Of a DNA stretch of 64,000 bases, positions 8,949 to 41,098 are shown one piece after another. The stretch lies in contig QPGO01000037.1 in assembly GCA_008632985.1 (NCBI GenBank), positions 310,001-374,000 on the forward strand, read 5' to 3'. How positions within the stretch are numbered: the first letter of the stretch is position 1; the number at the start of each line of letters is the position of its first letter. Below the pieces are notes generated by a model. The model ran no database searches. It was not told the DNA's origin and saw nothing but the letters and a program-made list of their open reading frames with translations. The position numbers and the translations under genes are program-made. The stretch is from Psammoneis japonica (taxonomy: Eukaryota).

Positions 8949-9266
8949 CTACGAATTGCTGAACAATTGCGCGATACACGTGCCCGAAGGGTGATTGTTG
9001 CTTCGGGCACGAAATTCGTGCTTCGCGCACGTAGAGACCGTAGAAAATATACCAGCATTCGAGAATGTCCGATTTGTGTAGATCACGTAGCACAGTACCA
9101 CAGAGGTCATTGATGAAATTACTTCAACGACTCATGCGACTACAATGATATTTTCAATACCATATACTATGTAGAATGGACATCTGCGCGAAGGAAGAAT
9201 GTTGCTTCGGGCAACGATATTCGACCTTCGGGCACGTGTATCGCGCAATTGTTTTGCAATTTGTAG
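8949..9266. mobile_element. Tc1/mariner-type MITE with TA target-site duplication
   Basis: About 42-bp imperfect TIRs (CTACGAATTGCTGAACAATTGCGCGATACACGTGCCCGAAGG and its reverse complement), flanked by TA at 8947-8948 and 9267-9268. Confidence 0.8.
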
Positions 9267-9566
9267 TATTTAGGGAATTAGTAAGTGGAGCGACACATGC
9301 ACTGTAGCTCCAGAGCTACTAGAGCGTCTATAAAGAAGGGTATCTTCGCTAGAGCTTACACACTTATCCTATGACGAGTGCCTACTCTTTTTGCGAAGAT
9401 ATTTTCCCAAGATAGGCCGCATAGCATGGTGCTCCCTGTTGCAGAGACTTTATGCCATAGTCGGATCGGCGGCAAGTGTTTGGAAAGCTACACGTCAACG
9501 CAAAGCATCACAGTAGCGTGTGAACCCACTCCCCTTCTTTTCAAAGTCTCCCCTATACAATTCTCG

Positions 9567-10786: not shown

Positions 10787-11176
10787 TGCAGCAAGAGTGC
10801 CAAATCAATAGTAGCTATCCAACAGCAGACCATGGCTGTCATTCATCGAGTGCGAAAGAACAAACCAACGGAAAAAAGCCCGACCTCAAAATATAAAATT
10901 GAAAATTCACTGGGGCAATTGGGGGCAATGTCTCTTTTTCAAAATAATATATATTGAATGAATCCTGCAAGTTTTTTAATGTTGTATGATTTGGTATGTT
11001 TCACCGTGAGTCGACGTACGAAAGACAAAAATCGTTAGTTCAAGTCTTCCGTTGCCGTTGAATGAATGAAATATGTAACCGCCACAAACTTTCGCTCTTG
11101 CCAGTCTCGCTTTTGGCCATGAGCAAAAACCGCAAGGGCTTGACAGTTTGTGACTTGTACCATACACCAAGATCAA

Positions 11177-13130: not shown

Positions 13131-16100
13131 TGCCAAGTGGCGCCAAGTAATAGTATAAAGTAGCGTTGTAAAGTTGTCTGTTGCTAATATTGTGAGAAGA
13201 AATGAAAGAGATTCGGCTACTCCGAAATCTCGTAGAATTAATACTAAGAAACCGCGTAGAAATATAAAGAAACAATCTTTCGAGAGGCATCGAGATGTAT
13301 CGAGAAAGGAGAAGAGGTTTCTAGAAAGTGTCATCGTTGACATCCTTTTGACACTTTTGACACCAGGCTGACACCCACGAATGAACACACGAATGAATAT
13401 AGATGACCGTGATACTCGGCACTCGCTTCCCCAATTGAGACGTTAGAAGACAGGGTGAAGACGGTGGATGTTGATACGTTCAGTGACGTGAGGCGAGCGC
13501 TGGATGGCAACGGTTCCATTGGCATGGACACGTACGATGCGGAAAGGACCATCTTTGGTGTTGAGTTTGCGTTGGATGTCTTTGGTCATGACGAAGACTT
13601 GATCGCCGATGTTGCAGTCGCAAGCAAGACGTTTTGCGTTTTCGCGGAGATTGTTGCGTAAGACATCGCGCTTGCGACGGGTGTTAATCATTTTCCAGTT
13701 CGCAAGATAAGCAGCAGAAATGACCATGTCTCGACCGAAGACAATTTGTCCGGGAGACAACACAAGGGCAGTGTGGCAGGTGCTGCGCAAGGCCCATGCA
13801 ACGGATTGCAAAATTCCATGAATTGTGTCTTCATCATGATCGCGAGAAGGGAGATCCATCGCACGGAGAGAATCGGCCATCACTTGATGAGTGTGTTCAA
13901 CGAACGCGTTGGCTTGAGGATTCTTGATTGTTGTGGGTTTCGGTTTAACACCACAACTGCAGAGGAGATCTGCAAACTCGGAAGTGAATTCGGAACCGTT
14001 GTCATAAATGACAATTTCTGGTCGCGGACAGCGACAAAACCACTCGCGATCGACGACAAGTGAAATGTCTTCGGACGTTTTGAACTTGCAGTTCGCGAGT
14101 TCGACCCAACGGGTTGCGACATCAATGGTTGAAACGGCTCTGATTTTGCGATCGACACCATTTTTGTCGGCACACGTCCAGGGACCAAAAAGATCGACTT
14201 GAGTTGCCTGCCAAGGTTTATAAGTAGCATCTGGAAGAGGCAATTCGCCACAGTTTGCCATGGCACGCTTGGATTTGGAACACGTGCGGCACTTGCGGAC
14301 AAAAGTGCGGACTTTCGTCTGCATGTCGCGAATGTAAAAATGTGAAGCCAAAGTTTGGCAGGTGCGATTAGCACCAGGGTGGCAGAGAGTTTCATGGCAC
14401 CACCGTAGAACTGCAGGAAAAAGCGTTGGAGGGAGGACAATCTTGTTCTTGTAAAGGACAATCTGTTTTCCGTTGAATGGTTCGGCTGAGCAGGATTCGG
14501 ACTTGTCGAGTCGTTGCTGAAGAGCAGAATCTTTTTTCTGATGGTCGGCGACAATGTCAAAAGTAACGGGGAATGTCGAAGGATCGATTTCCAACGAAGT
14601 CATTTCCTCGTAATCACTTTGATCGACTTGGACAACAGGACAGCGACTCAAAAAATCAGCCACGACATTCTCATGGCCTGGTGGGTGCTCGAAAGAGCAA
14701 TCGCACTCCTCGAGAAGCAAATGCCAGCGTTTGACGCGTTCTGACTTGAATTTGTCAAATGCAAGATTTTTGTGATCGGCAAACAGGTGGCATCGATGAC
14801 CAAAAAGGATGCTTTTGAAATTTTCGGTCGTTTCCACGAGCGACAGCAGCTCTTTTTCCATTGTCGTGTAGTTTCGTTGCGCTTGAGATAATTTTCGGCT
14901 GTAGAATGCAATTGGCCATTCGCCATCGTCAAAATCTTGAGCAATCACTGCACCAAGTTGACAATCACTCGCATCCGGATAGATCTTGAAAGGTTGAGAG
15001 AAGTCGGGGAATCGGAGGAGGATTTCGCGCGCCATGATTTTTTTCATCTGATTGAAAGCTTCCGTGTGGACGTCAGTCCACTTGAATTTGACTTTGTCTG
15101 ATGACAGCGCAGTTAAGGGCGCAAGAGTGTGGCTGCGTCGGCACCACAATTTCTTGTAACAATTCACGAACCCGATGAAACCACGTAATTGTCGACGGTT
15201 TTGAGGGCGAGCGAAGCGAAGCAAGGGTAGGATTTTCTTTTTCTGAGGCTGAGTGCCTTTTGCAGTCATGGCATGGCCTGAGTGGTCGACGGTCTTGGCG
15301 GCGAAGTAGGATTCTTCGACATGTGCATGAAGATTGTTCGCGAGGAGCCGTTGCAAGACGAGTTCGAGTCGTTGACAGTGATGGTTGAAGTTGTTCTTGG
15401 TAAAGAGGATGATGTTGTCGATGTAGACTATGACATCTTCCATGTCATGAAAAACATCTGTCATGCAAGCTTGAAAAATGTCGCTTGCCGGTTTGATTCC
15501 TTGCGGCAGGCAGTTGCAGCAATGCTTGCCCCACGGCAGGATGATGCCGCAGAGTTTTTTTGACTCGTCGTCAAGCACGAAGTGACAGTAGCCTCGGTTG
15601 AGGTCCAAACATGTCGCATGGGTAAAGCCGTTCATTTTCCATGCGACGTCGTCGATGACAGGCAGTGGATGTGGATGCCGTTCGAGACACTCGTTGAGTT
15701 TCCGTAAATCGGATAAGAAACGGATGCCACCGCTTTTCTTCGATCGGAAAAGACAGGATGCGCCCCAAGGAGAGTGAAGTTTGCGCGTGACAACATCGAT
15801 TTTTTCCAATTCATCCACTTCTTTGCGAGCCATGGGATGTGACGCTTGCGGAATGGTGCAAGCTTTCGCACAGCATGGACGCGATCCTGGTTTCAGGGTC
15901 AAATGGACGGGTTTACCGGGTGCAGCTCCAAGTGCACCATCGAACAATTGCGGGCATCATCCGAAGAGTTCGATGAGTTGGTGCTGTTGATCGTTGTCAA
16001 GGTGTTTGCAGCGTAGAACCATGTCGCGATAATTGTGCTTGTCGCACGCATTGCTCGTCATACCTCGAACCTGACGGTTGACGGCATTCTGGAAGAACTT

Positions 16101-18030
16101 GGGTAATTCAGCATCGCCGGGATGAATTGCATTAACTTCGACTTGGTCGAAAGAGCCCTTGGATTGCATGGACAGGGTGACATCGTCCCACGTGATTGTT
16201 TGATGTCGAAAATCAAAAACGATTCCCATTTCTGTGGCGGTTTTTCTTCCGATGATAATGTCGTGTTTTCCTGCGGCTTTGTCTTCCATGTGAGCATCGA
16301 CGGAAACCTTCTTGGACGATGCGAAGTCTGGGAACTTCAATGTCAGCGTCGCAATCTCGTGTAGATTAACGGCACTGTAACGGCCTTTAACGGGAACGTT
16401 GCATTTACGGATTTTGTGAGGAATCCCGCGAAGGGCTGAGCGCTTCACAAAATTGCGATTTGCGCCGGCATCGAGTAAAGCAACACGGAACTTGTGCATT
16501 CCAGAATGAGCATCAATCATCTGGACACGCGCTTCCGTGGTAAGATTGTCTTCTATTTCGGATTCGATGGAATCGTCTAGAAGAGACGTGACGTCTTCAA
16601 AAATGTCGTTGATGTCATCTGACGCGACGCTGTCGACATCGTTAGAAGCGGAGCGACTAGCTTTGGAGTCCACATTGTTGTTTTCGACGTTCCGTGTGCG
16701 GCTCCGTGTGGGATGGCGGTGTGTCGGCTCGTTTCGAGAGTTATTTTGTTGATTCGGCGCGTTCCGATTTGTGCGGTTCCGCTCATAATTTTCACGTTCA
16801 CGACGGATGACATTGCACTCTTGACCGTTCGGATGTACAACGCCATGGATTGGACATGTTTGTTCACGATTGTTTTGGTTCCTGTTCCTGGTGTCGCGAT
16901 TTTGGTCGTCATTCTGGCCGCGACGCGCATTTCGACCGTTGTTGCATCGATTCCGATTGTCATTGCATCTGTTGTTGTCGGTAGACCCTTTGTCACCACG
17001 TTGTTCCATGCGTCGGAGAGTCTCGTAGCATTGAGCTTGGTCGTTCAAGTTTAAGTTGCGAAGACGGGCTTTAGTCTGAGTTTCGGCCCATGATCTTGGT
17101 CCACATTTTCGAAGGATTACGGACAATTCCGCTTCCGTGAATGACGGAACTCTTTCGGCGTCATCTTCGGTTGGCGCAGGCATGATGTCAATCAACTTAT
17201 TAAAGCGACGTACATCATTAACAAATGACTTGACAGTTTGGTTCCTGGGTTTCTTAAGGCTTTGAAGCCATTCCTCAGTGTCAAGGGCAATTTCTCCATC
17301 CATGCATTGGAGTAGAAATTCTTCACGACAAGTGTCGAATGTAACTTGGTCGTGGTTTTCGTATTCGTTTACGACGATTTCCCAGTCGTCTTTTGGTGTT
17401 CCGGTCATAAGTCTGGTCACGAGCCGGAAACGTGGCTGTCCTTCAGCCGCACCGAGATCGTTGATAAGTTCATCGAAGTTTGACCAGAAGGTAAGAACAT
17501 CTTCCGGTTCAGTTGAAGCTAACTTACGTACCTTGATCGTAGTTTTAAGCCCATCTAGATCGTCAGGATCAATGGGGCTTTCAAAAGACACGAATTGGTC
17601 TTTGCGTCGCTCTTCCTCAGAGCGGTCAGGACGCTTAAGTTCGAATGGGCAGTTTTCTGCTGACATGTCTGGTCAGGACAATATGATCGGTAGATATATC
17701 TCAAGAGAGATGAATAAGTGTTTGGGAGTAAATTTACTATGCCAAGTGGCGCCAAGTAATAGCATAAAGTAGCGTTGTAAAGTTGTCTGTTGCTAACATT
17801 GTGAGAAGAAATGAAAGAGATTCGGCTACTCCGAAATCTCGTAGAATTAATACTAAGAAACCGCGTAGAAATATAAAGAAACAATCTTTCGAGAGGCATC
17901 GAGATGTATCGAGAAAGGAGAAGAGGTTTCTAGAAAGTGTCATCGTTGACATCCTTTTGACACTTTTGACACCAGGCTGACACCCACGAATGAATATACG
18001 AATGAATATAGATGACCGTGATACTCGGCA
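13131..18030 (-). mobile_element. Full-length Ty3/Gypsy LTR retrotransposon (element A)
   Basis: 291-bp LTRs at 13131-13421 and 17740-18030 (TG...CA), 5-bp TSD CTGAT, PPT next to 13421, gag-PR-RT-RH-IN order. Confidence 0.97.
13443..17666 (-). pseudogene. Element A single-frame gag-pol with one in-frame TGA at 15957-15959 and many Tyr->Cys/His changes
   Basis: LLDAGA protease, YIDN (YIDD), DAS RNase H, H..LCH..C..C and D,D,E integrase, GPF motif. ORFs 15957-17666 and 13443-15947 are in the same frame. Confidence 0.9.
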
Positions 18031-19641
18031 CTGATATCAGCGGCTACCTTCCAAACGCTGATTCCGCAAATAGCGACTTCGTCTAAATCAATCCTGTACG
18101 TGAGATTGACGACAAAAGGAAATACGAGTATCTCTGGAAAAGAGGAAAAGCACTTGTGTACTCGAGACGAGATTAGAGATGGTGCATGGAAAAAGGTTGT
18201 GCGGAATGCGCCGCCGTATGTCCCGACGGACAAGCGAAGCATTTGCTATGGTGACGACGTTTTTGAGCAACCGACATGGACTACGTGGGATTGGTCGCCA
18301 TTCAACGTTTCACAAAGTGAACAAGGCTCATCTGAAAGTGGCTGCCTATTCAACGCATGGGACAATGATACGTTCTGTAAGGTCGCAAGTGGCATCCAAA
18401 CGAGCAGTAGGCCGACATTGGCCATTGTTGGGGACTCGCTCTCATTTGAACAATACAGCTCGTTATCACTGCTGTTAGGATTGCCTTCAAAAGAGGACGA
18501 TCATCACGCAGCAAGAAGAGCGAATCGGAATATTGTTAAAACGGCATGTAATTGGACAATATTGTACAGACGGAGTGACAGGCTTGAGTTGTTGCCTTCG
18601 GTTGTGGAAGCAAACGATCCAAATGTGATTGTCATTAACCGTGGTGCTCATTATGTCAACGACGGACGACTAGAGTCTGAGCTTAAGCGATCAATTCAAT
18701 TTCTGCAAAGCTGGCAGAAGGACTGCACTGCTCAATGCAAAACATGTTGGCTCTTTGTGCGAACTACGGTTCCGGGGCATCCGAACTGTGGTGGTTACAC
18801 CGAACCGAGCAATAGTATAGAAGCGATGGAAGCCTTGGTTGGAAACCTGAGTAACTATGCGGGAAGCGAGAAAACCTATCATTGGTGGGACATGAAGCAT
18901 CAGAATGAGCTGGTACTCGATCTCTTTTCAAAGTCGGGGCTACAATACCAGGTCATTGACGCGTACGAACTCAATATCTTGAGGCCAGATCACCATCGGC
19001 CCCCGGATTGTCTACATAGTTGTTATCCTGGAAAGATGGATGTATACAATCAATTGCTACTCCACTTTTTGCGACAGAATTTGATTGAGACAAGATCACC
19101 CTCAACCTGCTTTCGACAAGAGCAAGCGCTCACAGGCAACTCAAGCCTTAAACTGTGAATACGCATGTGGTTCCGAATGTGATCCCCAAACTTTGCGGAA
19201 TGACCCCACTTTCATAGTTATTTGGAGTAATTACTATCAATATCGTCTTTGACTAGAATGGCACGCATATTCAACGAGCATATCTATAGAGAGTGTTCCG
19301 CTCATGACGAAGAAAGAATATTCGTAGCTGTCCAAAACAAAACTGTTGTCGATGTTTCCTTGTGCGTTCTAGTGCGGAGAGTTCGCTAAACGATCTTCAT
19401 GAAAGTTGATTTAATACTCCATCGTCCTATAGTTCGAATACTTCATACATCATCAAGGAAGCCATCTTTTGCCGCCTACATTGCCCGTCAACGGGGTGTC
19501 CCTGGCTTGCACGACGAATATCATGAGCATTGATGGCTACTAAAGCTTTCAAGGAGTCTCAGAATATGCAAAGAATGTTGATTCATATTCCTTAGATTAT
19601 TCAGCTGCTATTCCATTCCCGCTCTATTTTGCCTTCTTCGA

Positions 19642-19947
19642 TCACTTGGTCTTGTTGAAGAAGTTTGTCATTATGGATCGAGACGCGGGAGCGGGAGCCG
19701 CCCATGGGTTCAGAATGCGCATGGAGTTCACCACTTCATTTCTTCTTCTTGACTTGTCCCTTGCGCAAAACGAAGACGACATCTGCGTATCTTGTGAGCG
19801 ACCAAGCTTGCCATGGCGTCCAAACTCGTCATTCTCCTTGTTCTCGGTTGTGCGTGGACTGCTCGAGCTCTTTTTGTGATGCACCATTTCCCCGTAGACA
19901 GTGGCTGCATGATTGGCGTTATTCGAGTTGTGGATGGAGGACACCAT
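19642..19947 (-). CDS. Small hypothetical protein, paralog of 8359-8697
   Basis: Conserved blocks shared with the 8359 ORF. Likely start MVSS at 19947. Confidence 0.65.
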   Translation of the reverse strand: MVSSIHNSNNANHAATVYGEMVHHKKSSSSPRTTENKENDEFGRHGKLGRSQDTQMSSSFCARDKSRRRNEVVNSMRILNPWAAPAPASRSIMTNFFNKTK

Positions 19948-20372
19948 GTTTACTTTATTTCCTCTTTTGTCTCCCTGGAGTTTCAAGAAATTTAAATTGT
20001 GATAAGATATGATCGATGTGAGGCAAAAGAAGTGAGGCGCTGTGCAATGTTTGCACTTCCTGCACGACGCGTAGAAATGTACGACAGTTTAGTACCGGAA
20101 AAGCGCGCGAACCGACTCCATGACTGAAACAAATGTCGCGCGTGACGTGGCACTTCAATCGGCGTCTGATTTCGTCCGTGTACTACAGTAACTGACGGTT
20201 TATCGTCTGTCTTCGTCCGAACGCCACGATTTCTGCGGGGAACGCGGAATGCAATTTTCGACACAATGATGCCGAAGTGAGTTGGCGATTTGCGTCGGTT
20301 GACGACTCGAGAGTAGCATTATTGATTGTAATTCATGGCTCTTAGTTTGTAACAAGTGCAAAAAAGAAAAAA

Positions 20373-23179: not shown

Positions 23180-24757
23180 GGAGACGACTCCTCTCCATAA
23201 TGCCAAAATGAAGCAGTTCCTAGTCATGGCCAGAGAGAAGCTTTAGCTCTACAGCAGCAGAGAGGGGCCAAAGGCTAAAGCTGTACATTGTTTGTTGGTT
23301 GCCATGCCACACCACAGGGAAACTACCTCTCTGCTGTAATTTCTGCTTGGTGCTCATGTGGTGTGCCTCCGCATCAGGGTTGAGAGTGGGGGCAGGCAAG
23401 CCAGGAGGAGCGGGAAGTGGAGGAGAAAGTTTCGGGATGGTGGTGTCAATTGCAAGGTGTCAATGTCCCATTGGGGAAGCAGCAGAGGCAGCTGGGTTGA
23501 GCTGGACAATGAGGTCAGTGGGGCACTTGAGGGGTGAGTGAGGTGCAAGGTTTGTGGGTTCATGATGGACTGCGGAGGAGTCGGCACAGATGCCAGAGAG
23601 AGAGAGGAGCAACAAGTTTTTGGAATGTGGTGAAGAGGCCATCACGTGTGGCATTGGACAGAGCAGCTTTGTGTCTGAGAGGCTGGCAGCAGAAAGCATG
23701 ATCTCTGCAGGGGTTGGCAGCACCATTGCAAGAAGGGCAGGAGACAGAGTCAGGGTGATCAGCCAAGATGGGGAAATGCAGCTTGCATTGCAACACAAGG
23801 TGGAATTGATCAGGGGACAGCAGGCATTGGTTGGGGGCATGGAGCGAGCAAGGGAGTGAAAAGGGAGGCTTGCAAGTGCGGAGAGAAGGGAGGGGAGATG
23901 TGTGCAGGGCCTTGCTGTTGGAGCATTTGCAACTGGCATTGAAAGTGGGCATGGCACAGATCATGAGAGAGGTTGCAGGTGGGTTGTGGGTTTTGACAAG
24001 GGCAGTGATGGAGGGTGGAGCAGGGTCGAGCGTTGGGGTGGTGGCAGTGCCACAGTGTTTGAGAAAGACTTGACAGAGGCACAGGAGCCAATGGGAAGTG
24101 GCCCATGTGCAGAGTGAGCAGGCACAGAAGGGAGGCAGTTTGGGGAGTTGTCCTTGCCAGCAGCAGGTCCGTGCATGGTGCATGGCATGCCCCAGACCGG
24201 GAGCGGTGGGCAAGTTCGCAGATGAGGAAGGGTGTGATGGAGGTGGAGGTGGAGATGGAGTGGCAGCCCAAGCTGCTGGTGTGGATGTGGGGAGATGAGC
24301 AAGGAGCATTGCATGGGTTGGCAAGGGCTGTGATTGTGCCATGAGATGCTGCAAGAAGGCATCAGTGCAGCAGCGGCATTGGACATTTTCTTGTTGGAAA
24401 GGCCAAGCCCAGGAAGCAAGGCGGGGTGGGCCAGTGGGTTGTCTGGGTGCGTGGAAGAAGTTGAAGCACACTTCTGAGACCAGGAGGTGCAGGAGTGAGG
24501 AGGTGGCACAGGCATGGCATGGGGAGCTTTTGGTTTGGGTGTCTCAGAGGCAGGAGGAGAGCATGTCGAGGTTGGTGCGGAGCGCAGGTGCTTTTTGGTC
24601 GAGGCAGGCTCGGGGGCAAAGTCAGGGCTGCCGATGCACTGGCCAAGGAAGCGGAGGTTTGTGGCAATTTCAGGGTGGAGAGTGGGGTCGTTGGCAGGGT
24701 TGAGGAAGGGATTGCTTTGGAGGAGAGCGGCGCAGAGGCGTGGGCACTCGCTGGGGG
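23180..24757 (-). mobile_element. 3' relic of a CRE-like (restriction-like endonuclease) non-LTR retrotransposon
   Basis: C..C....NPCRDHAFCC......SNATRD followed by EPTNLAP..PLKCPTD (RPAD-like). TA/CG depleted and interrupted by element B. Confidence 0.6.
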
Positions 24758-27700
24758 TGCACTGTGCTCGAAGAACGAGTGTAAACGAAAGTAGAATAGT
24801 GCACGAAAAGTGGAAATTATAAGATCAATTTTTGCTCTGTGATTTTTGGTTTCTCCGAACGAGTTCTCAATGGCCTAAAGCTTCTGTACTGCTTCTACAG
24901 ACAAAAGGCCTTTCGGAGAATATATTCGTGACAACAGATTGTCCGGATACGATTGCTATTGACACGTAAGATGTCAACATCGTCAATCGATCGTATTTGC
25001 AATTCTCGACATCCGATCAACTCTGTGTGATCGTTCTGTCCTTTGTACGCATCCACGACTGTGGTACGATTGACATATAAATAATATATAATCATAAATA
25101 TGTATATAACAGTCGCATACTGCATTCGCCTCCCTAATTGCACATTAGAGTCATTTGTAAGTGGATTATTCGACGGACATCGACAGTGTCAATAATGTCT
25201 CCACTTTCACTGTATTGTGCCATTAGCAATGACTGTTGTTGTTTTGTATAGGCAATATAGGGCCGTTCCAATTTCCGAATGTCTTTTGAGAGTGACATTG
25301 TTTGTTTCTCACTTAATATGTATATATATAGTATTACGTCGAGTATTCTCATTGACGTTCTTGTTGATATGAACACAAGGACTAATTGTCCTGGAGTAAG
25401 TGTTTTTCCTGATATCGATTGTACATAGCATCGTGCCCAGTACTTAATGTACGCTCTTAATTATGGCGTTCACTTACTTACTTGTGGATTTCATGTAGTT
25501 TGGCGGGCTTACTTTATATGCCATATTGCTCTGCTGCACTACCACGTTTCATAAGTAATAATAAACGATGGTCAAAGATATTATGACCATTTCGTCTTGA
25601 TAATCAATCCTGTGATGGTTATGAATTCCATTGTGGATTTTTTTTTTTTTGTACTTCAACCATCTATCAGTTGGATTTTAATCGTTATTTGGACGTTTTT
25701 TTCTGACATGCCGGTGTCATTTTGTCATTCCGAAGGCACTGGTTTCGTGCACTGAGTGGATGAATGTCCATTTTTCTTTTCTTTTTCTAGATCTTTGGCA
25801 CATCTCGTGTGTCGACATGATGTGTGTTTTAATGTCTTGCCTCGTACATTGTACAGTGCAACCGTGCGGGTGTTGTGAGATTGTCTTTTGCCAGTGTGAA
25901 GTGGACACGTGTGATGCACACCAATCTGTCACTGTTTTTTCCCAAATCGTCCTTTAAAATGGCGATTTTATCCTTGTGACATGAGCATTTTTCGATCTCG
26001 CTCGCCTCCACGAAAAGTGTTCGTATGACATGTCGCGTCCGACAATTTGGAGGGGAATGTCTTTATCCCGTTTTAACGGCAGGACATTGTCGCAGGATTC
26101 AATTTTCTGTGGCAAGTCGGCTGATCGCGTCTGTCGCGACGATGTTCGCCTTGCCCTCGTTGTGTTCTAATTTGGGGCTGAAGTTGTCAACGTGTGACTT
26201 TGTCCGTTGTGTCTTGTGATCCGTGTGTGCACAAATCTGTTGGCCAAACAGCACATTTCGGAATTTTATGAGTGTTTTCACCATGGACAGAAGTTCTTTT
26301 TTCCGTTGCAACGCACAACATTGAAATCCGTGCATGATGACAATGTGGTTTTTGATTTGATGCGCTCCACATTTTCGGAGACTTTTCGTTCCGTACTTGT
26401 GCTTTTGCCGTTTGACCTTCACTGAGGTGAATTTGGCTAGTGTTGTGCAGGAGATCGTTGAGACTGCATGTCTCGACAATGGTGACGCATGACAACGAGA
26501 TGTCGCAGTGTTCTTTGCGTTTTTCTCGTGTTGCGATTGCTTGAATCGCCTCCATTTTCTTTGCAATCGATTGCATGTCGTTGCGCATGGAAGTCTTGAC
26601 AGTTTATTTCAAGTTAAATGGTGAAGGACTTTTGTTGTCAACCTTCTAAGCGACTGTTCTGGTCATTTGAATGCCGCATTAAGCTGTCACTTGTGCAGGT
26701 GACATTTTGAAGTTACTTTTGTCAGGCACAAACGATCACACACAGTCGTTTTGACAACTTCAAACCTGTTGTGAGTTCACTCAAGTGTTGCACAAAAACA
26801 TCTGGGGCTCCACAGATTCTCATTGGAAGTCCGTGGCACTCATTTTCTCCCCACGGCATGATTTTCGTGTGAGCACGACGTGTGCTTTTTTTATTTGACA
26901 TGGTGGCATTCCATGTTTGAATCAAATGGATTGCATGTGTGAAACGTTCTTGCTTCAATGGCATTTCCTGAACATTGGGCAAAGGACACACCACCTGTGT
27001 GAACCTTGTGCCAAGCTTCTGAGTGTCGGATGCGGTCGAACTCGACCTGTTTTCTTTGGACAATGAGTCTCAGAGCGACTTGTTCAGAGCAATTTCATTC
27101 TCAAGACTTCAATCTTTCACAATGGGTCAAACTCCTTTTGATTGGACGCCTCCAAAGACTGTGATGGGAGAAGGTTCTCACGCGTCATGGAATCGCGTCA
27201 GATTTTCCACAATGAGATCCACTGATGCTTCCCATGCATTCGTCTGAGGAACTTTTCAAAACGATTTCAACCTCTTAAGAAGAAGATTGAGTTGGTTGTG
27301 TTCATTTGGGTTAGATGCATCGCCGCAGTTGTCACTTGATTAAGATCGATGGCGTGACAATGTGAGTCGAGGACCATTGGCTCCGTTGTTGACTCCATTC
27401 ACGGCGTCACATTTTTCAATGTGATCGGTTTTCAGCTTGAAAACATCGGCATCGAAGAGTGCATGAACATTCTTCATAAGGCAATTGCTTCTTCCCATTA
27501 GATTTCTGCATTTGCGCAGTCCAACATGACTTGCAGGACTGGACATTAAGTCGCGTCCCATGATCATGTCATTTGAACCTGAAGAAAATTTGGTGTTTTC
27601 AACATGTGCTGTTTGAATGTCACCATGCTTTAAATTTCGCATGGTGAGAACTGAATTCGGTGTTTGCTGTCAGTCGTAAAGAGCTCACCCTTGGTTTCCC

Positions 27701-28854
27701 AAGTTTTTGGTGGCGGATTCTTGTGTTCTCAACTTTCGCACGAATTTGCGCAAAATTGTGGTTGACGATGTTCCGTTGTCGACAGGAACACGCAGATGCT
27801 TTTTTTTTTTTTTTTTCCTTTCCCAAGGAAGCATTCACACAAATGATGACTCCTGGACCAGTGTGAATTATTTCTGCCTTTTTTTTCTAGGCTTCCTGAC
27901 ATCCAGCAAAGCGTGTAATTCGTGAACAGACCAAAATCATTCTTCGGATTCAGTCTGGATCATCCGATCAAATTGGTGTTTTTCTTCACTGAGGGCATCA
28001 GAATCTGATTCTTTGCCCTTGTGCTCTTTTTCTTTGTTCAAGGAACTTGCTTTGAGCATTTTTTTGAACCGCCTGATCAATCATGACGTTCATCTCTTTT
28101 TTTTGCGAGCGGCATTTTCGTTGTCGCGACGCGACCGCGTGCGATTGCCATTTGAACGGCGCATTTTTGGGTCTCTTTCAGAGTCACCCTTGCACTCTTT
28201 TGCTGGTTCATTTTCGGAATGGCTTTAATCCATGATGCAGGCATTCTTTTTTCAAAGATTGGACCTTTCACTCACTTTGGATTGTGGTGGTGCCATGTGG
28301 GAGACCATTTTTGGAACCAAAATTGGAACCTTTTTGATTGTGGAATCAACTGCGCTGTCAGAGCCCGAATTGATGTGTTTTTTTGTCACAGACGTCCTTG
28401 CCGACCTCTAGACGACTCAAACCTCAATCAGCTCGTCAAGGGTATGATGTGCACTATGCTCGAAGAACGAGTGTAAACGAAAGTAGAGTAAAGTTCAAAA
28501 AGTGAAAATTGTGAGAATTGTTTCTGCGCAATCATTTTGGGTTTCTCCGAACGGGTTCTCAACAGCCTAAACCTTTTGCACTGCTCCTACAGACAAAAGG
28601 CCTTTCGGAGAATATGATCGTGACAACAGATTGTCCGGATACGATTGACATTGACACGTAAGATGTCAACATCATCGTACGATCGCATTTGCGATTCTCG
28701 ACATCCGATCACTTCTGTGTGATTGATCTGTACTTCGTACGAACCCACGATTGACGTACGATTGAAATATGCTTTTATTTAATGTATAGATATACATATA
28801 TAATACGTACATGACAACGCATATTGCATTCGCCTCCCTAATTGCACATTAGAG

Positions 28855-31800
28855 TCAGTCGTTAAACGGCATTATTCGACGAATATTGACAGTGTCAATA
28901 ACGTTACCGCGTTTGATCTGTACTGTGCCATTAGTATGTACCGTTGTTATTACATACGGTCCAACATAGGGCTGTTCTAATTTTTGCGAGTCTTTCTCGA
29001 GTAGTATCTTTTCTCCTACTCTGTACGTGTAAGGAGTACGTCGAGCATTCTCTCGAGCGTTATTTTTATTTATGATTTCTTGTTTTCGCTGCTGGATTAA
29101 TTTCCAGTCTGCGACATGTTGGACGTTAAATATCATGTCTCTATTGAAGATTAGTTGTCCTGGTGTAGCTTGCGTAGTGGTATGATATGTAGAACGTACC
29201 GCAAATGCTACTGCTGATAGTATTCCAGCGAAAGGATCCTCAGTATCTAGAGGTGTATGTTGCAAATCAAATGTACGGAGCATGTTCCCCAGTACTTGAT
29301 GTACGCGTTCAATAATTGCGTTTGCTTGTGGATTTCGTGTAGTTATAGGCTTGACTTTAATGCCATAATCATCTTGCACCATTTCTTTAAATTGGTGTCC
29401 GATGAACTCACTTCCACGGTCATATGTAATTAACGATGGCCAAGGATATCTACTTAACCATGTTCGTTCTAGTAGTCCAGCTACAGTTATGGACTCCTTA
29501 TTTGGGATTTCCACAACTTCAAACCATCCGGTTGCTGGATCGATCATAGTTAAACATTTCAGGACTAGGGGTTTTTTCTTTCCCTTACGACGTATTTTGT
29601 ATGGCCCAATAAGATCCACACATAGTCGTTCCCATGGTACGGATTCTGCGCACTTAGGAGGTAAATGTCCATATTTCTTGTGTTTCTTTTTGAATTTTTG
29701 GCACGTCTCACATCTCGACACGTATTTTCGTATGTCTTCACGTAAGGTGGACCACCATAGGTGTTGTGAGATTGTTTCTTCTGTTCGATTTATGCCAGGG
29801 TGAAGAAGGTACGTATGATACCAATCTATCACTGCCTTTTGTAACGTCCTCGGGACGACAATTTTATCCTTATGACATATGAGCAACCGGTCTCGCTCGC
29901 CTCCACGAAAAGTCTTCGTATAAAACGTCTTATTTGACAATTGGGAGAGAATGTCTTTATCCCGTTTTTGTTCATAATCAAGAACTTTGTAATTTAACGG
30001 AAAGACATTGTCGTAGGATTTTGGTAGGACCTTTTCAGCTAGCTCTTCTGTGCTGAGGGTTTCCATAGGTTCTATTTTCTTCATAGTAAGTCGGCTAATC
30101 GCGTCTGCGACAATATTTGCCTTGCCCTCAAGGTATATTATTTCGGGACTGTATTCTTCTATTATTAGACGCCAACGCATGACTCTGTCCGTTGTGAAAT
30201 TTTTGTGTGTGAGATTTTTGTGATCCGTATATATATTTATCTGTTGGCCAAACAGTATATTTCGGAACTCTTTTAACGTCTCCACTATGGACAATAGCTC
30301 TTTTTCCGTTGTAGTATAACGCGTCTGCGCTCCATTCAGCTTGCGGCTGTAGAAGGCAATTGGTCGGTTTTTCTGAGTAATAACCGCCCCCAATTGAGAT
30401 TTACTAGCATCGGTATATATCTCAAAGGGTATATTAAAATTCGAGTATGATAATAGTATATCTTTGGAGATGATGCGCTTCATATTTTCGAAGGCTTTTT
30501 GTTCTGTTTCGGTCCATTGCCACTTTACTTGGGTAGAAGTGAGTTTGGCTAAGGGAGCTAAAACATGAGATCGTCGAGGCCACATGTCTCGATAGTAGTT
30601 GATCATGCTGATAAAGCGTCGCAATTCCTTGCGAGTTTTGGGAGTTGCGATCGCGCGAATCGCTTCCACTTTTTTTGGAATCGGACTGATGCCCTTGCGG
30701 GTGATGTGAAAGCCTAGATAGTCTACTTCGGGTTTAGCGAAAAAGGACTTCTCGGCGTTGACCTTCAATCCGGCTTGTTCTAGGCGTAAGAACACCGTTT
30801 CAAGCTTCTTGAGGTGGTCTTGAAAATCACCTTTTGCAAGACACAATGTGTCGTCAATGTAAGTTCTGACGAACTCCAGACCTGCCATGAGCTCACTCAT
30901 GTGCTCTTGGAAAATATCTGGAGCTCCACAGATTCCCATCGGGAGTCTACAGTGCTCACATTTGCCCCAAGGCATGACAATCGTGCACAAGCGACGTGCA
31001 TGTGGCGTCAATTCGACATGACAGTGTCCCATGTTTAAATCTAGGGACGTTGCATGCATGAAGCCTTCGAGCTTCTGTAGCATATCCTGAACATTGGGTG
31101 GAGGAAACGGAGTACGAATTAACCTCTTGTTTGGCTCACGAAAGTCGGACAAGAACCGAACTCTACCATTTTTCTTGGGTTGAACAAAGGTTGGAGCCGC
31201 CCATTCAGAACAATTTATTTTTCTCAAGACTTTCAACTTGCATGGTCTTTCAACCTCCTTACGAGTGGTCGCCTCCAAGGCTTGTGGCACGGGAAATGGT
31301 TTGGCATGATGCGGACTCACGCCCGATTTCAACTTTAAATCCACCGGTTTCCCGGTCCATTTGCCCAGAGAACCATCGAAAAGGTTTTCAAATCTTTTTA
31401 AGAGGAAGTTCAGCTGCTTCTGCTCTTCAGGAGTTAGATGAGCAGCTGCTGCGGTCACATTATTGAGGTTTGCAGCGTGATGGTCTGAGTCAAGGATCCG
31501 ATTGACCCTGTCATTAAGACCAATCACTGCATGAGATTCCTCAATGTGATCGGCAATCAACTTAAAAACATCGGCATCGAAGAGTGCATCAACATTCTTC
31601 ACAGGAGCAGTTGCATCTTCCCATTTAATTTCTTCATTCAAGAAGTCCAACATTGTCCCAAGACTTGACATTAAGTCGCGTCCCATGATCATGTCATGAC
31701 GACTCGAAGAAGAAGGGGAGTTGTCAACATGTGCCGTTGTTTCAATCATCTCATGTTTGTCAAATTCGGGCAAGGAGAATTGGATCTTACATCGACTGTC

Positions 31801-32055
31801 AGTCGTGAAGAGCCCTCCTTTGGTTTCCCAGAGTTTGGTGGCGGACACTTTTGTTCTGAGTTTCTGCGTGAATTTGCGCAAAATTATGGTTGACGATGTT
31901 CCGCTGTCGAGGAGAACGCGCAGAGGCTTGTTTTTCACCTCACCTGATGAAGCATTCACATGGGCGACGACTGCTGGACTAGCATGAATTACTTTGGCCC
32001 TTTTTCTGGGCTTCCTAACATCCAGCAGAGCGCAAGACTCCTCTTGCGGTGCAAG
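28855..32055 (-). CDS. Element C Pol (PR-RT-RNaseH-IN)
   Basis: LLDSG, YIDD, YTDAS, HPG...C..C, DLIGP, DRG, NAIIER and GPY motifs. The frame is open up to the gag stop. Confidence 0.92.
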   Translation of the reverse strand, partial: LAPQEESCALLDVRKPRKRAKVIHASPAVVAHVNASSGEVKNKPLRVLLDSGTSSTIILRKFTQKLRTKVSATKLWETKGGLFTTDSRCKIQFSLPEFDKHEMIETTAHVDNSPSSSSRHDMIMGRDLMSSLGTMLDFLNEEIKWEDATAPVKNVDALFDADVFKLIADHIEESHAVIGLNDRVNRILDSDHHAANLNNVTAAAAHLTPEEQKQLNFLLKRFENLFDGSLGKWTGKPVDLKLKSGVSPHHAKPFPVPQALEATTRKEVERPCKLKVLRKINCSEWAAPTFVQPKKNGRVRFLSDFREPNKRLIRTPFPPPNVQDMLQKLEGFMHATSLDLNMGHCHVELTPHARRLCTIVMPWGKCEHCRLPMGICGAPDIFQEHMSELMAGLEFVRTYIDDTLCLAKGDFQDHLKKLETVFLRLEQAGLKVNAEKSFFAKPEVDYLGFHITRKGISPIPKKVEAIRAIATPKTRKELRRFISMINYYRDMWPRRSHVLAPLAKLTSTQVKWQWTETEQKAFENMKRIISKDILLSYSNFNIPFEIYTDASKSQLGAVITQKNRPIAFYSRKLNGAQTRYTTTEKELLSIVETLKEFRNILFGQQINIYTDHKNLTHKNFTTDRVMRWRLIIEEYSPEIIYLEGKANIVADAISRLTMKKIEPMETLSTEELAEKVLPKSYDNVFPLNYKVLDYEQKRDKDILSQLSNKTFYTKTFRGGERDRLLICHKDKIVVPRTLQKAVIDWYHTYLLHPGINRTEETISQHLWWSTLREDIRKYVSRCETCQKFKKKHKKYGHLPPKCAESVPWERLCVDLIGPYKIRRKGKKKPLVLKCLTMIDPATGWFEVVEIPNKESITVAGLLERTWLSRYPWPSLITYDRGSEFIGHQFKEMVQDDYGIKVKPITTRNPQANAIIERVHQVLGNMLRTFDLQHTPLDTEDPFAGILSAVAFAVRSTYHTTTQATPGQLIFNRDMIFNVQHVADWKLIQQRKQEIINKNNARENARRTPYTYRVGEKILLEKDSQKLEQPYVGPYVITTVHTNGTVQIKRGNVIDTVNIRRIMPFND

Positions 32056-33210
32056 TCATTCCTCGGAATCACTGCGCGTCATTTTTTCAAACTGACAATT
32101 TTCCTCGTCAAGGGCATCAGAATCACAATCTTTGCTCTTGTGTTTTTCATCATTGTTCGAAGAACTCGCTTTGAGTAATTTTTGAACTGCTTGGATCGCC
32201 ATGGCATTCAACTCTTCTTTGCGAGCGGCGTCATCGTTATCGCGACGAGACCACGTGCGATTGCCATTTGAACGGCGCCGTTTCGGGTCGGGTTCATAGT
32301 TCCCACGGCGTTCTTTCGCAAGTCTTTTGATCGACCAGCACTTGTCCGTGTTGTGAGTGGATTTCTCGCATAAAATGCACCACTTCTCGGACTGAGATTT
32401 TTCGGTGCCATGTTGGTGACCATTTTTGGAACCACGTTGGGAACCACTCTTGGCTTTTGATGCAGCACCGCCACTGCCATCAGCCTTGGCATGAATGCCA
32501 TCAAACATGTCTTCTGCGACCTCTAGGCGCTCCAAGAACTCAACCAACTCGTCATGGGCATGTTTCAAAATTTCGAAACCCTGGACGGTCGACTGACGCT
32601 GCCACTTTCGAGGTGCAAGGTTGAAGAGGATGTCCTTGAGCTCGTTGTCCTCGATCTTCTGTTCCTTCCCAAAGGGAGGATAGAACTTGAGGTCTTCGTT
32701 GACTTCTTGGACCCAAGCAGCAATTTCGCGTACTTTCATGGACTCCGGCTTCTTGAGATCACGACGCAAATAACGTTTCTGCACCGAAAGTGCGTTCTTG
32801 GGAAACACATGCCTCGTGAGATGTTGTGGGCATTTCTCGAAGCTTCCTTCCGCAGATTCGTCTTCAAGGTTCGCTGCCGCATTCTCAAAAGCACGTAGAG
32901 CGTCTCCTTGGAGCAACACACGCATGAGACGAAACTTGTCAGATTGCTTCCTGACACTCTGGCCCACTGAAAGTTGATCGTAGCTCTTGAGAAATTCGAT
33001 GAACTTGGGGACACCTTGTTTCTTGTAGCACTCAACATTGATGGTGTGGGTGCGGCTGTCCTTCTTCTCGGGATGAAAACGTTGCTCCATCTTGAGGCAC
33101 TGGCTCGGTTTGAGGCTCTTCGGCTCGGAGTTCGATTCCAGCGGTTGAGGGACGATTTTCTCCTGCCTCAACGAAGTTTTGGCGTTGGTTGCATGAGGTG
33201 AAAGCTTCAT
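32056..33210 (-). CDS. Element C Gag
   Basis: QKRYLRR capsid-like motif and C..C....H....C zinc knuckle. Same frame as pol, separated by one TGA. Confidence 0.88.
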   Translation of the reverse strand: MKLSPHATNAKTSLRQEKIVPQPLESNSEPKSLKPSQCLKMEQRFHPEKKDSRTHTINVECYKKQGVPKFIEFLKSYDQLSVGQSVRKQSDKFRLMRVLLQGDALRAFENAAANLEDESAEGSFEKCPQHLTRHVFPKNALSVQKRYLRRDLKKPESMKVREIAAWVQEVNEDLKFYPPFGKEQKIEDNELKDILFNLAPRKWQRQSTVQGFEILKHAHDELVEFLERLEVAEDMFDGIHAKADGSGGAASKAKSGSQRGSKNGHQHGTEKSQSEKWCILCEKSTHNTDKCWSIKRLAKERRGNYEPDPKRRRSNGNRTWSRRDNDDAARKEELNAMAIQAVQKLLKASSSNNDEKHKSKDCDSDALDEENCQFEKMTRSDSEE

Positions 33211-35269
33211 CTTGAACTTGTTACCTTCTTGTGGTGTGCACACACAATGCACTGTGCTCAAAGAACGAGTGTAAACGAAAGTAGAGTAAAGTTCAAAAAG
33301 TGAAAATTATGAGAATCATTTCTGCGCAATCATTTTGGGTTTCTCCGAACGGGTTCTCAACAGCCTAAACCTTTTGCACTGCTCCTACAGACAAAAGGCC
33401 TTTCGGAGAATGTGATCGTGACAACAGATTGTCCGGATGCGATTGATGTTGACACGTAAGATGTCAACATCATCGTACGATCGCATTTGCGATTCTCGAC
33501 ATCCGATCACTTCTGTGTGATTGATCTGTACTTCGTACGAACCCACGATTGACGTACGATTGAAATGTGCTTTTATTTAATGTACAGATATACACACATA
33601 ATACGCACATGACAACGCACATTGCAGATCCAGCAGTTCAATGTTTTGGACAGCAGGCTGATGCTGCCATCCTTGCGGTGTGAGTGACAGCTGATAAATC
33701 AGCGCTCGGTTTCCCGCGAGATTCGACTTAGAATCCATCTGAGGGTCGCACAGACTCTCATCGTTGACCTCTTGGGTCTATCAGAGGCTTCTTTGCTGTT
33801 GAGCGGCTCTGGTTTCTTCAGGTCGTCTCGAAAATAATTTCCCTGATTCTGAAGTGCATTTCCTCAGAGGACATGAGTTGTGAGACGCTTGAGGTACTTT
33901 CCAACGATTCCCTCTTGCTCCTTGGACTCAAGGATCATCGATTCGGTCTCAAAAAACTCTCCAATAGTCTCTCCTTGCATGGTAGACGCATTTCTCGGAT
34001 CTGATCGACTCGGAACTTGCATTCTCTGCAACCATGACTTGGTGTAGATTTTTTGACAATGCGGTGCACTTGAGAGCCCTTGATCCTTGGGTGCTTGGAA
34101 TAGACCGCACCAGAGCGAATCCTCTTGTTTGGTGGACGAAAAACAGCGTTCCATCTTGAGGTGCTGCTCGGCTTGAGCTTCTTCCGCTCGGAAATCGATT
34201 CCAGCAGAACTGGTGCGATTCGTTCCTGTTTGTAGAAGAATTTGCAAAGGCACATTAGTTGAAATTTTCATTTTCCGTGCTTTTTACCTTCTGTGGTGTG
34301 CACACACAATGCACCATGCTCGAAGAACGAGTGTAAACGAAAGTAGAATAGTGTGCGAAAAGTGGAAATTATAAGATCAATTTTTGCTCTGTGATTTTTG
34401 GTTTCTCCGAACGAGTTCTCAATGGCCTAAAGCTTCTGTACTGCTTCTACAGACAAAAGGCCTTTCGGAGAATATATTCGTGACAACAGATTGTCCGGAT
34501 ACGATTGCTATTGACACGTAAGATGTCAACATCGTCAATCGATCGTATTTGCAATTCTCGACATCCGATCAACTCTGTGTGATCGTTCTGTCCTTTGTAC
34601 GCATCCACGACTGTGGTACGATTGACATATAAATAATATATAATCATAAATATGTATATAACAGTCGCATACTGCAGGGGCAAGTCTGCAAGTCAGGTGG
34701 GCCAGTGCGGGCGATCGGACGACGTACGTACATACAGAAAGGACAGTAGTACCGTACGTCACCCTCGGATCGTAACAGATTTCAACTGGCGCACAGACAG
34801 ATTTCTACGCGATTTCTACGTACCTCGTACAAATCACGTAGCCGTACTAGTACAAAACGTCTGCCCTCCACCCCAATGTGAAGTATTACGGCTGATGATT
34901 TTCATTCTCTCGATTTCGGGAAACTCGGTGCAATAAGGAGTCGACACCGTACTTGTAGGGGTCCTAGGACTGAAGTCAAAAGCTTGTCAAAAGGACGTCC
35001 GTAAGATGACAGAACAAACAAAGAGCTAAGCCTAGTGTCAAAGAATTATAATAAAACTGTTAAAAGACACCAGCTCGATTCCGAGGTAACGGTGACTAGA
35101 TGCAAAAAAACGATGCTGCTCATTGAATGGAGTGCGCTGTGTAAACCCCGGCCAGTCGCACGCTACTTTGCACCTCCGACAAGAATAGTATGAGACATGT
35201 AGTTTGCCTTGGTCTAGAGGTAGGCCACCACGTACACCATCAGAATTGTAAGCACGTTTGAAAACTAGG

Positions 35270-35880
35270 CGTAGCAGCAGTAGTAAGAAAGTAAACGGCA
35301 AAAATCCAAACGATGTCCCAATCGGTAAAGGTCCCGGGAAAGGTTTTGATCCACCACATCTTGACAGTGCTTAGCCTCATGCTGATAGATTTGGCTCATT
35401 CCCACGTCCCAGACTTTCCCACCTGCATATTCCTTGAAACCAACTGATCCACCATGAATGCCATTGTTTGTAACCCACAAAGATATCCTCCGAGAGATTG
35501 ATACCTTTTGAGGTCTTGCTGATACCACCATGAGAAATAAAAAAAGGACTGTCAGACAGATCAGGGTGTCCATAATGTAAGCGGGTGCAGAGAGGTCTTG
35601 TCAAAACCCTTCGTCCCAGCGTGACGAAAGAAACTAATGCCACGAAGTGTGGCAGAGAACTCAAAATCCCTGTATGTATGTGATCCACGAACACCACGGC
35701 TGGTATCATCAACATATTCGACAAAGTAAAATATCAGGCCATTTTGCGGGGAAGAATCTGCTTGTGGACCGAGAAACAAGCAGAATACGTGCCGGACCGC
35801 TAACGTCTGTTGGAAACACACCGAACACGCGCCGCGACGTCCAGAGCTCATCTCAAACACGCCAAAGGTGTCCCACACAT
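35270..35880 (-). pseudogene. Fragment of a 1,3-beta-glucan (callose) synthase, GT48/FKS family
   Basis: RLHYGHPD, GGISKTSKGINLSEDIF and DVGMSQIYQHEAK...QNLSRDLYRLGHRLDF motifs spread over several frames. Confidence 0.88.
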
Positions 35881-39580: not shown

Positions 39581-41098
39581 ATGGACGAATCGGAGTCTGC
39601 AAGGAGGAAGAAACCACCAGCGTCGAAGCGCAAGCCGAAGCAGACGGTGAAGTTCAAGAAAGCACCTCAGGCTCCTCGGCGTTTCAAGTCGGCTTACATG
39701 TTCTTCTCAACCGACAGACATAAAGAGATACGAGCTCGTCTTAAAGCGGAAGGGAATGTGACTGAAAAGGTGAGGTGGCAAAAACGAAATGAGGGCGAGA
39801 AAACCCCTTAATATCTTTTGGGAACGAAGCGCTCTATGCTCTATCTCATGTTTGCTTTATGCGATTTCACCTCGAAAGTTGAGGATCTGATTCGTCCTGT
39901 CATCATCGTTATCTTCTGACGTGCTTTCATTTTTCGTGTTTTGTTGATTTGCTTCTATGCTACACAGACGACAAATATTGCGAAAATGGTATCAAGGGAA
40001 TGGAAAGCCCTTAGTCCGGAAGAGCGGGACAAGTGGGAAGAAATAGCGCGTCGAGACAAGGCAAGATATGAAATGGAAAAATCCATGTACACGGGTCCTT
40101 GGAAAGTTCCAGCAAAGATGCGAAATCAAAAAGATCCCGCAGCTCCCAAACGCCCAATGTCGGCATTCTTATCCTTCTCTAATAGCAGAAGAGCTGAAAT
40201 GAAGAGAGCTAATCCCCACTGCACCAATGCTGAGATTTCTAAAAAGCTAGCTGACTTATGGAAGGATGCATCTGAAGAGGAACGAAAGGAACACGTTGAA
40301 AAGGAATTCGAACTTCGCAAACAATACAAGGCTGCGTCTGCCGCGTGGAAAAAGCAACAGAAAGAGTCGTCAGCCAGTGCTGCTTATGATCACGAACACG
40401 GTGCTTCAGTGCCACATCGTCAAGGTATGGCAATGCCAGTAGGTGATTTCACTCACTCACACACAGGCGGCTACTATCCTCCGTATCCTGGTGGAGGCAA
40501 CCAGGGCTTCATGCCTTACCATCACGCATCTGCAGGGACGGCTGATCAGAATGACAGAGAAGGGATGACGTCGTATCCTACCGAGGCTCCGTCCTCCTAT
40601 GGAAACCCAGAAGCAGGGATGGGATATTATCAGCATCAGCAGTATCAACAAGGCCAGTACGCTTATCCTAACTCTTACGATGCTAGTATGCAAGCCCAAC
40701 CTCAGCAAAAGTATGGTGATCCGTCTTCTTTTGGACCGGGTTACTCGCAATATCCGCCGCAGCAAACATATGGTTACTACCAGCAACAACAACATCCATA
40801 TGATTCTGGTGGGGGGGTGCAAATGGGACAAGAAGGTAAGAATTGAAAACGAGATTCCGCTTTCATTTTCTGACTGGCCTGATACTTTCTTTGGTTTTTT
40901 ACGGAATGCGTCTCCTTCTTGTAAGGTTCTGCTGAGGCTTCATACCAGAATGCAAACATGCAGTCATACATGATGCAGCAACAAGGTGCTGCTCCATACC
41001 ATTCTGGATACGGAGGAAGCTATAACGGTGTTCAGGAAGGCGATGAAGCTGACACTGCGGAGCAAGGAGGCATGATTCCGTACCCGCGTTACCGGTAA
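39581..41098 (+). CDS. Tandem HMG-box protein 2 (exons 39581-39769, 39968-40835, 40926-41098)
   Basis: Paralog of 37032-38495 with the same two HMG boxes and the same first intron position. Confidence 0.88.

Follow-up and report, generated by a model that had tools for sequence, protein, structure and literature searches.

A ruined Ty3/gypsy element between near-identical long terminal repeats, and block-wise loss of TpA, in Psammoneis japonica

Structure of element B

In a 64,000-nucleotide stretch of Psammoneis japonica DNA (assembly GCA_008632985.1, contig QPGO01000037.1, positions 310,001 to 374,000 of the forward strand; hereafter the window), we characterized a minus-strand Ty3/gypsy long terminal repeat (LTR) retrotransposon, element B, that spans 24758-34676 and carries a ruined coding region between near-identical LTRs. 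A second Ty3/gypsy element, C, is nested inside it. Self-comparison of the window returned four related LTR copies in two pairs. Across the pairs the identity is 85%, and the interiors of B and C are 65-75% identical. The two LTRs of B (24758-25124 and 34310-34676), each of 367 nt, share 98.9% identity; their termini read TGCA...TGCA and so have the TG...CA ends of the Ty3/gypsy type. Their four differing bases form two adjacent pairs, both of them CA/TG swaps: TG at 24763-24764 against CA at 34315-34316, and CA at 24802-24803 against TG at 34354-34355. An earlier, first-pass annotation of this DNA had likewise counted two differing dinucleotides. It dealt with the span 25125-28449, which is only the 3′ part of the B interior, between the 3′ LTR and the nested C; the remaining 683 bp of interior lie beyond C at 33627-34309. 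The features of the locus, including the target-site duplication (TSD), are as follows, with TpA content given as an observed/expected ratio (o/e).

24754..24757, no strand: left TSD copy, GGGG; matches 34677-34680; low complexity
24758..25124, minus strand: 3′ LTR of B, 367 nt, TG...CA; TpA o/e 0.82; the unitig of the unique flank stops exactly at 24757
25125..25153, minus strand: polypurine tract region, 29 nt; identical to 28829-28857 of C
25125..25695, minus strand: TA-retaining 3′ end of the B interior; broken remnant of the integrase C terminus; TpA o/e 0.93
25696..28449, minus strand: TA-poor B interior; remnants of the gag 3′ end, protease (PR), reverse transcriptase (RT), ribonuclease H (RNase H) and integrase (IN); TpA o/e 0.16
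28450..33626, minus strand: nested element C, not part of B; Ty3/gypsy, 5177 bp; gag of 416 amino acids (aa), TGA, pol of 1066 aa
33627..34309, minus strand: 5′ part of the B interior; gag remnant; TpA o/e 0.27
34310..34676, minus strand: 5′ LTR of B; pairs with 24758-25124
34677..34680, no strand: right TSD copy, GGGG; pairs with the left copy

The signals that an LTR element needs in cis are held in common with C. The polypurine tract AGGGAGGCGAA abuts the 3′ LTR of B, and the 29 nt upstream of that LTR, which include the tract, are the same in both elements. At the other end, the 18 nt that follow the 5′ LTR (34292-34309) are identical to the primer-binding region of C, the region itself being the same in B (34295-34309) and C (33233-33247). 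This region lacks a TGG start, and in B no LTR stretch of at least 8 nt is complementary to it. The TSD reads GGGG on both sides (24754-24757 and 34677-34680) and is weak, being of low complexity within a G-rich flank; taken as 5 bp, it becomes GGGGG against GGGGC, with one mismatch. The first-pass annotation had described both tract and duplication as intact. The tract stands, with its 29 nt shared with C; the duplication is present but carries little weight. The TA-free stretch of flank extends only ~45 bp past B. On the right, the DNA at 34828-35600 is TA-normal and is itself repeated, reaching a depth of ~366 in the public DNA run X1 used below, roughly six times single-copy.

The coding region

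The gag and pol of C, used as tblastn queries, tile 3456 of the 4008 nt of the B interior in order. The remnants are collinear with C gag 1-416 and pol 45-1062 at 30-56% amino-acid identity. Between the chained high-scoring segment pairs we counted 8 frame changes, and the interior holds 31 in-frame stops (23 TGA, 7 TAA and 1 TAG). With at least 8 frame changes and 31 stops, B has neither an intact gag nor an intact pol. The interior is also 411 bp shorter than that of C, and the RT stretch containing YIDD has no counterpart in B in the alignment with C pol. Many deletions and frameshifts relative to C, which the first-pass annotation had noticed, are thus borne out, as is its description of a ruined coding region between near-identical LTRs. 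The TA-rich 3′ end is broken as well, with 5 stops and 2 frame changes. By kind, B is an ordinary non-autonomous LTR retrotransposon. Part of its ruin is TpA-to-CpA/TpG hypermutation, and it is this that lies behind the retention of TA remarked on earlier.

Loss of TpA in contiguous blocks

Along 25125-28449, the TpA content of B changes at 25695, with 52 TpA in 570 bp on the side of the 3′ LTR against 33 in 2755 bp beyond it. This corresponds to 1 per 11 bp against 1 per 83 bp and to an o/e of 0.93 against 0.16 (binomial p = 1e-19), so the part next to the 3′ LTR (25125 to ~25700) does retain TA, as had been claimed. The same claim for C also holds: there the step lies at ~30619 and separates 148 TpA in 1790 bp, beside the 3′ LTR, from 43 in 2629 bp (p = 2e-25). 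A third element of the window, A, which belongs to an unrelated gypsy family, has a TA-poor tract of 3.8 kb (13424-17194). That of B measures 3.4 kb and that of C 2.6 kb plus part of the 5′ LTR. The tracts are contiguous, and in A and B they end at LTR borders. The spared part is the 3′ end in B and C and the 5′ end in A.

Three lines of evidence bear on the direction of change. The first is the LTRs. Between the members of the A, B and C pairs (1039 nt compared) we found 19 difference events, all at TpA (18) or CpG (1); they comprise 14 cases of TA against CA or TG, 4 CA/TG swaps and 1 CG/CA. The 3′ LTR of C keeps TA where the LTRs of B read CA and TG, and B keeps TA where the two LTRs of C read CA and TG. 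The second is the family majority, as most family contigs in X1 have T, and hence TA, at position 24802. The third is the protein homologues: compared with 60 of them, C has His or Cys in place of conserved tyrosines in its TA-poor half only, as detailed below. Two further counts agree, one from A (below) and one from B. Opposite 172 tyrosines summed over 10 homologues, the TA-poor part of B (25696-28449 and 33627-34309) has 1 Tyr, 43 Cys and 41 His; in the TA-rich end, 6 of 10 aligned tyrosine positions are still Tyr. Because outgroup LTRs, family majority and homologues agree, the change is read as loss of TA and not gain. TpA is therefore turning into CpA or TpG, whichever strand is read, and TA is the ancestral state. 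Both TA-to-CA and TA-to-TG changes are present in the sense orientation, 240 of the 259 variant places among the family contigs of X1 are transitions, and GC rises in the hypermutated parts from 0.36-0.41 to 0.44-0.48.

This type of change has two consequences for how such elements are read. In-frame conversion of TA to CA or TG makes no new stop codons, so A and C keep long open reading frames (ORFs) though crippled, and an open gag-pol is no sign of activity. In addition, the differences between the LTRs of C are all at TpA or CpG, so LTR divergence here records exposure to the mutator and not age; LTR dating fails in this genome. C has lost 11 TpAs from its 5′ LTR, which adjoins the TA-poor half, against 3 from its 3′ LTR (two-sided p = 0.057), an excess suggesting that C was hit locally, at its present site, after insertion. 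In B, the same two of 30 TpAs are missing from each LTR, changed at each site to CA in one copy and to TG in the other, and the other 28 persist in both. One of the two lost sites is also lost in the 5′ LTR of C, which suggests that the pair are hot spots; by eye, we saw no sequence context shared by the two.

We considered several mechanisms for the TA pattern. A transcription-linked zone of ~3.4 kb at the 5′ end was rejected, the spared part of A being its 5′ end. Editing of minus-strand cDNA by an APOBEC-like enzyme is not favoured, given that both TA-to-CA and TA-to-TG occur in sense, that the side of the polypurine tract is spared and that LTR differences have arisen after integration. 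More generally, since different elements are spared at different ends, we do not favour models that depend on the direction in which an element is transcribed or reverse-transcribed. We also rejected a gain of TA in the 3′ ends resembling repeat-induced point mutation (RIP), on the grounds of polarity, of the intact conserved RNase H-IN part within the TA-rich part of C, and of an o/e of ~1.0. The idea that a purine tract at the TA steps served as an internal polypurine tract was dropped: the A13 run that B shows in sense orientation at 25648-25661 has no comparable feature in C.

The abruptness of the step in B raises the alternative that B derives from two templates, the reverse transcriptase having switched between a hypermutated RNA and a TA-rich one that supplied the 3′ end and the LTRs. 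The last TpA of the dense part is at 25686 and the next at 25788, and the steps in B and C fall at non-homologous places, about pol residue 820 and 500, respectively, both of which such a junction would accommodate. On the other hand, the TA-rich end of B is itself broken by its 5 stops and 2 frame changes, the sparing of the 5′ end in A leaves the pattern without a fixed polarity, and the LTR asymmetry of C indicates that block-wise loss also takes place in situ. We therefore regard a template switch as quite unlikely. The simplest reading of hypermutation tracts that end at LTR borders would be survivorship, in which only those hit copies that had usable LTRs were recopied.

Copies of the B family in a public DNA run

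Relatives of B were assessed in X1, where the evidence consists of unitig depth, summed over contigs, from a single study; contigs at least 90% like the B interior were counted as B-like. These sum to a depth of 6,559-11,547 per 400-nt bin, ~100-200 times that of the single-copy flank, and LTR bins reach ~17,000-20,000. Exact matches to a 153-nt segment of the interior (25137-25289) reach a depth of 819.5. The unique left flank of B has a depth of 52-76, and its unitig ends precisely at the LTR border, 24757. Since the flank stays at single-copy depth, the further copies of B would lie at other sites. Other copies of C are present as well, at depths of 5,410-8,095.

The copies also carry the lesions of B. 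In 25125-28449 only 8 places have an indel at a share of at least 10% (25909, 25918, 25960, 26052, 27268, 27879, 28059 and 28097), and a clear depth majority is seen only at 27879 and at two low-depth places represented by one contig each (25909 and 25918). With so few indel differences, most of the frame lesions of B are common to the family. X1 contigs also join 28445 directly to 33627, which means that copies of B without C exist. The first-pass annotation had proposed looking for insertions with the same internal deletions but different TSDs; judged by contig depth, siblings that share most of the interior damage exist, so an absence of siblings, which it had named as refuting, does not hold.

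The near-identity of the B LTRs could in principle have another source, namely gene conversion, collapse or polishing during assembly, or duplication or retrotransposition of the composite of B with C inside it. Movement of the composite would predict that the nested C has the greater LTR divergence, as it does (4.0% against 1.1%), and the TSD of B, being only GGGG, sits comfortably with any of these. Collapse or polishing, however, would write the family majority into the LTRs. The B LTRs instead share three minority letters (24821, 24826 and 24829) that differ from most family contigs and, where the family has TA, carry private CA and TG states in opposite directions; conversion and collapse, which had been named as possible explanations of the LTR identity, are thus poorly supported. 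Against the composite, all LTR differences of C are at TpA or CpG and so reflect hypermutation, not age, and copies of B that lack C exist. We consider this group of explanations very unlikely.

Origin of element B

We think it likely that B belongs to a high-copy non-autonomous Ty3/gypsy family that was dead before insertion and was copied in trans by proteins of the C type, that C inserted later, and that the genome runs TpA hypermutation in blocks. The first-pass annotation had also proposed an already-dead element recently mobilised in trans, and the copies in X1, their shared lesions, the cis signals and the LTRs support it. According to this model, the interior of B would already have been frameshifted, deleted and TpA-hypermutated when the present copy was made. 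Its RNA would have kept the cis signals that were needed and that are common to the C type, namely the LTRs, the primer-binding region and the polypurine tract. Proteins of the C type, acting in trans, would then have reverse-transcribed and integrated this RNA, leaving two identical LTRs, and C would have inserted into B afterwards. We liken B to a parasite of C-type proteins because its cis signals are closer to those of C than its interior is. The genome, for its part, would expose foreign DNA to TpA-to-CpA/TpG hypermutation, in uninterrupted blocks of ~2.6-3.8 kb. Such hypermutation would have given the B family its TA-poor interior, and later hits at the locus would have cost B only two TpAs in each LTR and affected C more heavily, in its 5′ LTR and 5′ half. 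TA-rich LTRs may persist in amplified families through the recopying of only those copies that have working cis signals.

The principal alternative is that B arrived intact and fell into ruin at this site, through TpA hypermutation confined to the interior together with ordinary decay, the LTRs lying outside the block. In-situ hypermutation does occur here, as the loss of 11 TpAs from the 5′ LTR of C against 3 from the 3′ LTR illustrates. B also has private TA losses, at 25762, 26620 and 27102, relative to most family contigs, and a process ~1000 times faster than ordinary mutation, as described in a preprint on Bigelowiella natans (bioRxiv 10.64898/2026.01.13.699255), could hit an interior before the LTRs diverge. 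What this process would not produce is the rest of the damage: conversion of TA to CA or TG makes no frameshifts, deletions or in-frame stops, and B shows 31 stops and no fewer than 8 frame changes. Both the lesions and the poverty in TA are, moreover, family-wide, as the contigs that are at least 90% similar to B span its entire interior with few indel differences. The LTRs are also free of ordinary change, with 0 substitutions outside TpA and CpG in the 1039 nt of the three pairs. If the 8 indels had arisen in situ, 6.4 ordinary LTR differences would be predicted and 0 are observed (P = 0.002), with substitution and indel rates borrowed from the same preprint. This absence favours lesions older than the insertion, and we judge ruin in place to be unlikely.

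Several observations weigh against death before insertion followed by copying in trans. In the one copy of C that was observed, PR and RT have themselves been hypermutated. The primer-binding region lacks a TGG start and, in both B and C, differs at two TpAs from a variant in X1 (loose end at 33229), which casts doubt on whether it still works. The LTRs of C differ by more bases than those of B (15 against 4) even though C is the nested element, and this is explained only if hypermutation is assumed to be local and episodic. The chance that both LTRs of B would lose the same two of 30 TpAs is 1/435. Others concern X1, which comes from a close but not identical genome (it contains 62% of the sampled words): at 24829, 25699, 27187, 27623 and 27629 no aligned X1 contig has the letter of the window. 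Summed contig depth differs from true copy number, all four runs come from one study, and the siblings are known from their depth.

Relation to known systems

The closest parallel to the TA pattern is the B. natans preprint (10.64898/2026.01.13.699255). There, two integrated viral regions are described as mutating ~1000-fold faster than the rest of the genome, almost only by change of TpA to TpG or CpA and in no more than some of the culture lines; reverse-transcriptase domains are over-represented among TpA-depleted coding sequences, and the authors suggest an ADAT-like adenosine deaminase. The signature was measured experimentally, on viral inserts, and reported in 2026. The pattern in our window matches this hypermutation by its sequence signature: changes are confined to TpA on both strands, TpA is depleted with CpA and TpG enriched, and the affected regions are bounded, with nearby cellular genes spared. 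The scale is different, however, since the published regions are inserts of a 186-kb giant virus and a 25-kb virophage, whereas the blocks seen here are 2.6-3.8 kb and lie inside single elements. In our elements, moreover, the LTRs mostly escape, and old blocks are depleted in CpG as well, which falls outside the published signature. The term "LTR retrotransposon" occurs 0 times in the preprint, whose supplementary tables may already list such elements, and our literature search found nothing closer for TpA hypermutation of LTR elements.

Non-autonomous LTR elements that depend on an autonomous partner include the large retrotransposon derivative (LARD) type and pairs such as Dasheng/RIRE2 and BARE2/BARE1. 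B resembles them in having no usable ORFs, near-identical LTRs and many copies with the same defective interior, as well as LTR ends, a primer-binding region and a polypurine tract in common with a coding relative. It differs from them in that its interior is still collinear with gag-pol over the full length, much of its divergence being directed TpA hypermutation, and in that no intact partner is seen in the window. Fungal RIP is similar in that transitions at one dinucleotide, introduced at the level of the genome, degrade repeated or foreign DNA. RIP, however, turns CpA/TpG into TpA, creates stops and lowers GC, whereas here TpA becomes CpA or TpG, no stops are made and GC goes up. The RIP signature, an excess of TpA from CpA-to-TpA change, is absent from the window, where TpA is depleted and CA/TG is derived. 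Proviruses hypermutated by APOBEC3 likewise include dead integrated copies with identical LTRs that are less edited than the interior. APOBEC editing, which increases towards the polypurine tract, changes C to U on a single strand; in our window both strands are affected, B and C are spared beside the polypurine tract, and A is spared at the opposite end.

What is of interest here is the block-wise hypermutation that spares LTRs, B itself being ordinary. The TA-retaining end of B marks an edge of a hypermutation tract; tracts of this kind were first reported in 2026 and, to judge from the preprint and our literature search, are not yet described for LTR elements. The window extends the hypermutation of integrated viruses to LTR retrotransposons at single-element resolution, and its block-wise tracts, spared LTRs and decay series provide concrete loci for testing the targeting rule. 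A broader idea, offered tentatively, is that TpA hypermutation is a defence acting on LTR retrotransposons in blocks of ~3 kb, which would kill by changing Tyr to His or Cys while leaving ORFs open and LTRs usable. Hit copies could then become trans-mobilised parasites, families of the B type would be the direct product of the defence, and the sharp tract ends, some exactly at LTR borders, might reflect guidance, for instance by RNA covering part of the element. We hold this to be possible but not probable.

Elements C and A

Element C (28450-33626, minus strand) has LTRs of 379 nt at 28450-28828 and 33248-33626 that are 96.0% identical, with 15 differing bases. Its gag of 416 aa is followed by an in-frame TGA and a pol of 1066 aa, with domains in Ty3/gypsy order (RVT_1, RT_RNaseH, Integrase_H2C2, rve). 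Among 8000 proteins scored, 1037 match this pol at E <= 0.001, the best at 61% identity; these homologues derive from metagenome contigs, and the nearest atlas cluster carries the label Bacillariophyta, which rests on 2 members. C looks intact, yet by comparison with 60 homologues it probably is not. Of the Tyr positions conserved to at least 87%, 8 (including five invariant ones) have become His (CAY) or Cys (TGY) in its TA-poor 5′ half, all within PR and RT at pol residues 120-368. No conserved Tyr has turned into His or Cys in the TA-rich 3′ half, where the RNase H-IN half (below ~30619) is untouched. Being hypermutated itself, C is an unclean reference for B.

Element A (13131-18030) has LTRs of 291 nt, between which the 4 differences are all TA/CA, and an error-free TSD of 5 bp, CTGAT. 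Both reading frames remain open, at 571 aa and, after a TGA, 837 aa, and 16 of 25 conserved Tyr columns are now His or Cys.

Cellular genes and TA-free debris

Cellular-type ORFs lie in TA- and CpG-normal DNA at 5971-8073, 9567-10595, 11488-12600, 18022-19158 and 39920-40846. Pfam matches identify them as ORC2, DUF1415, two PC-esterase paralogues that flank element A, and an HMG-box protein. Hypermutated repeats directly adjoin these stretches, in which the TpA o/e is 0.5-0.8 as against 0.03-0.26 in repeat-derived blocks.

TA-free blocks occupy 1-4000, 23300-24757, 46300-60400 and 61000-64000, with an o/e of 0.03-0.13 for TpA, 0.10-0.66 for CpG and 1.4-2.4 for CpA/TpG. Within them are relics of gypsy pol at 54864-56155 and 63646-63998, and the eight long ORFs scanned there matched no Pfam family. 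These TA-free, CpG-poor blocks look like old repeats that have been fully converted. The converse assignment, with such blocks as host background and the TA-normal DNA as a transposon island, was rejected because the cellular genes recognized by Pfam are in the TA-normal parts and the relic gypsy pol is in the TA-free parts. A decay series can thus be traced across the window, leading from fresh DNA in the 3′ half of C through the interiors of A, B and C to the converted, TA-free debris. Also within TA-free DNA, a 732-aa ORF (61154-63349) that has no Pfam family match contains, at 62278-62781, at least 9 tandem copies of a 42-nt unit.

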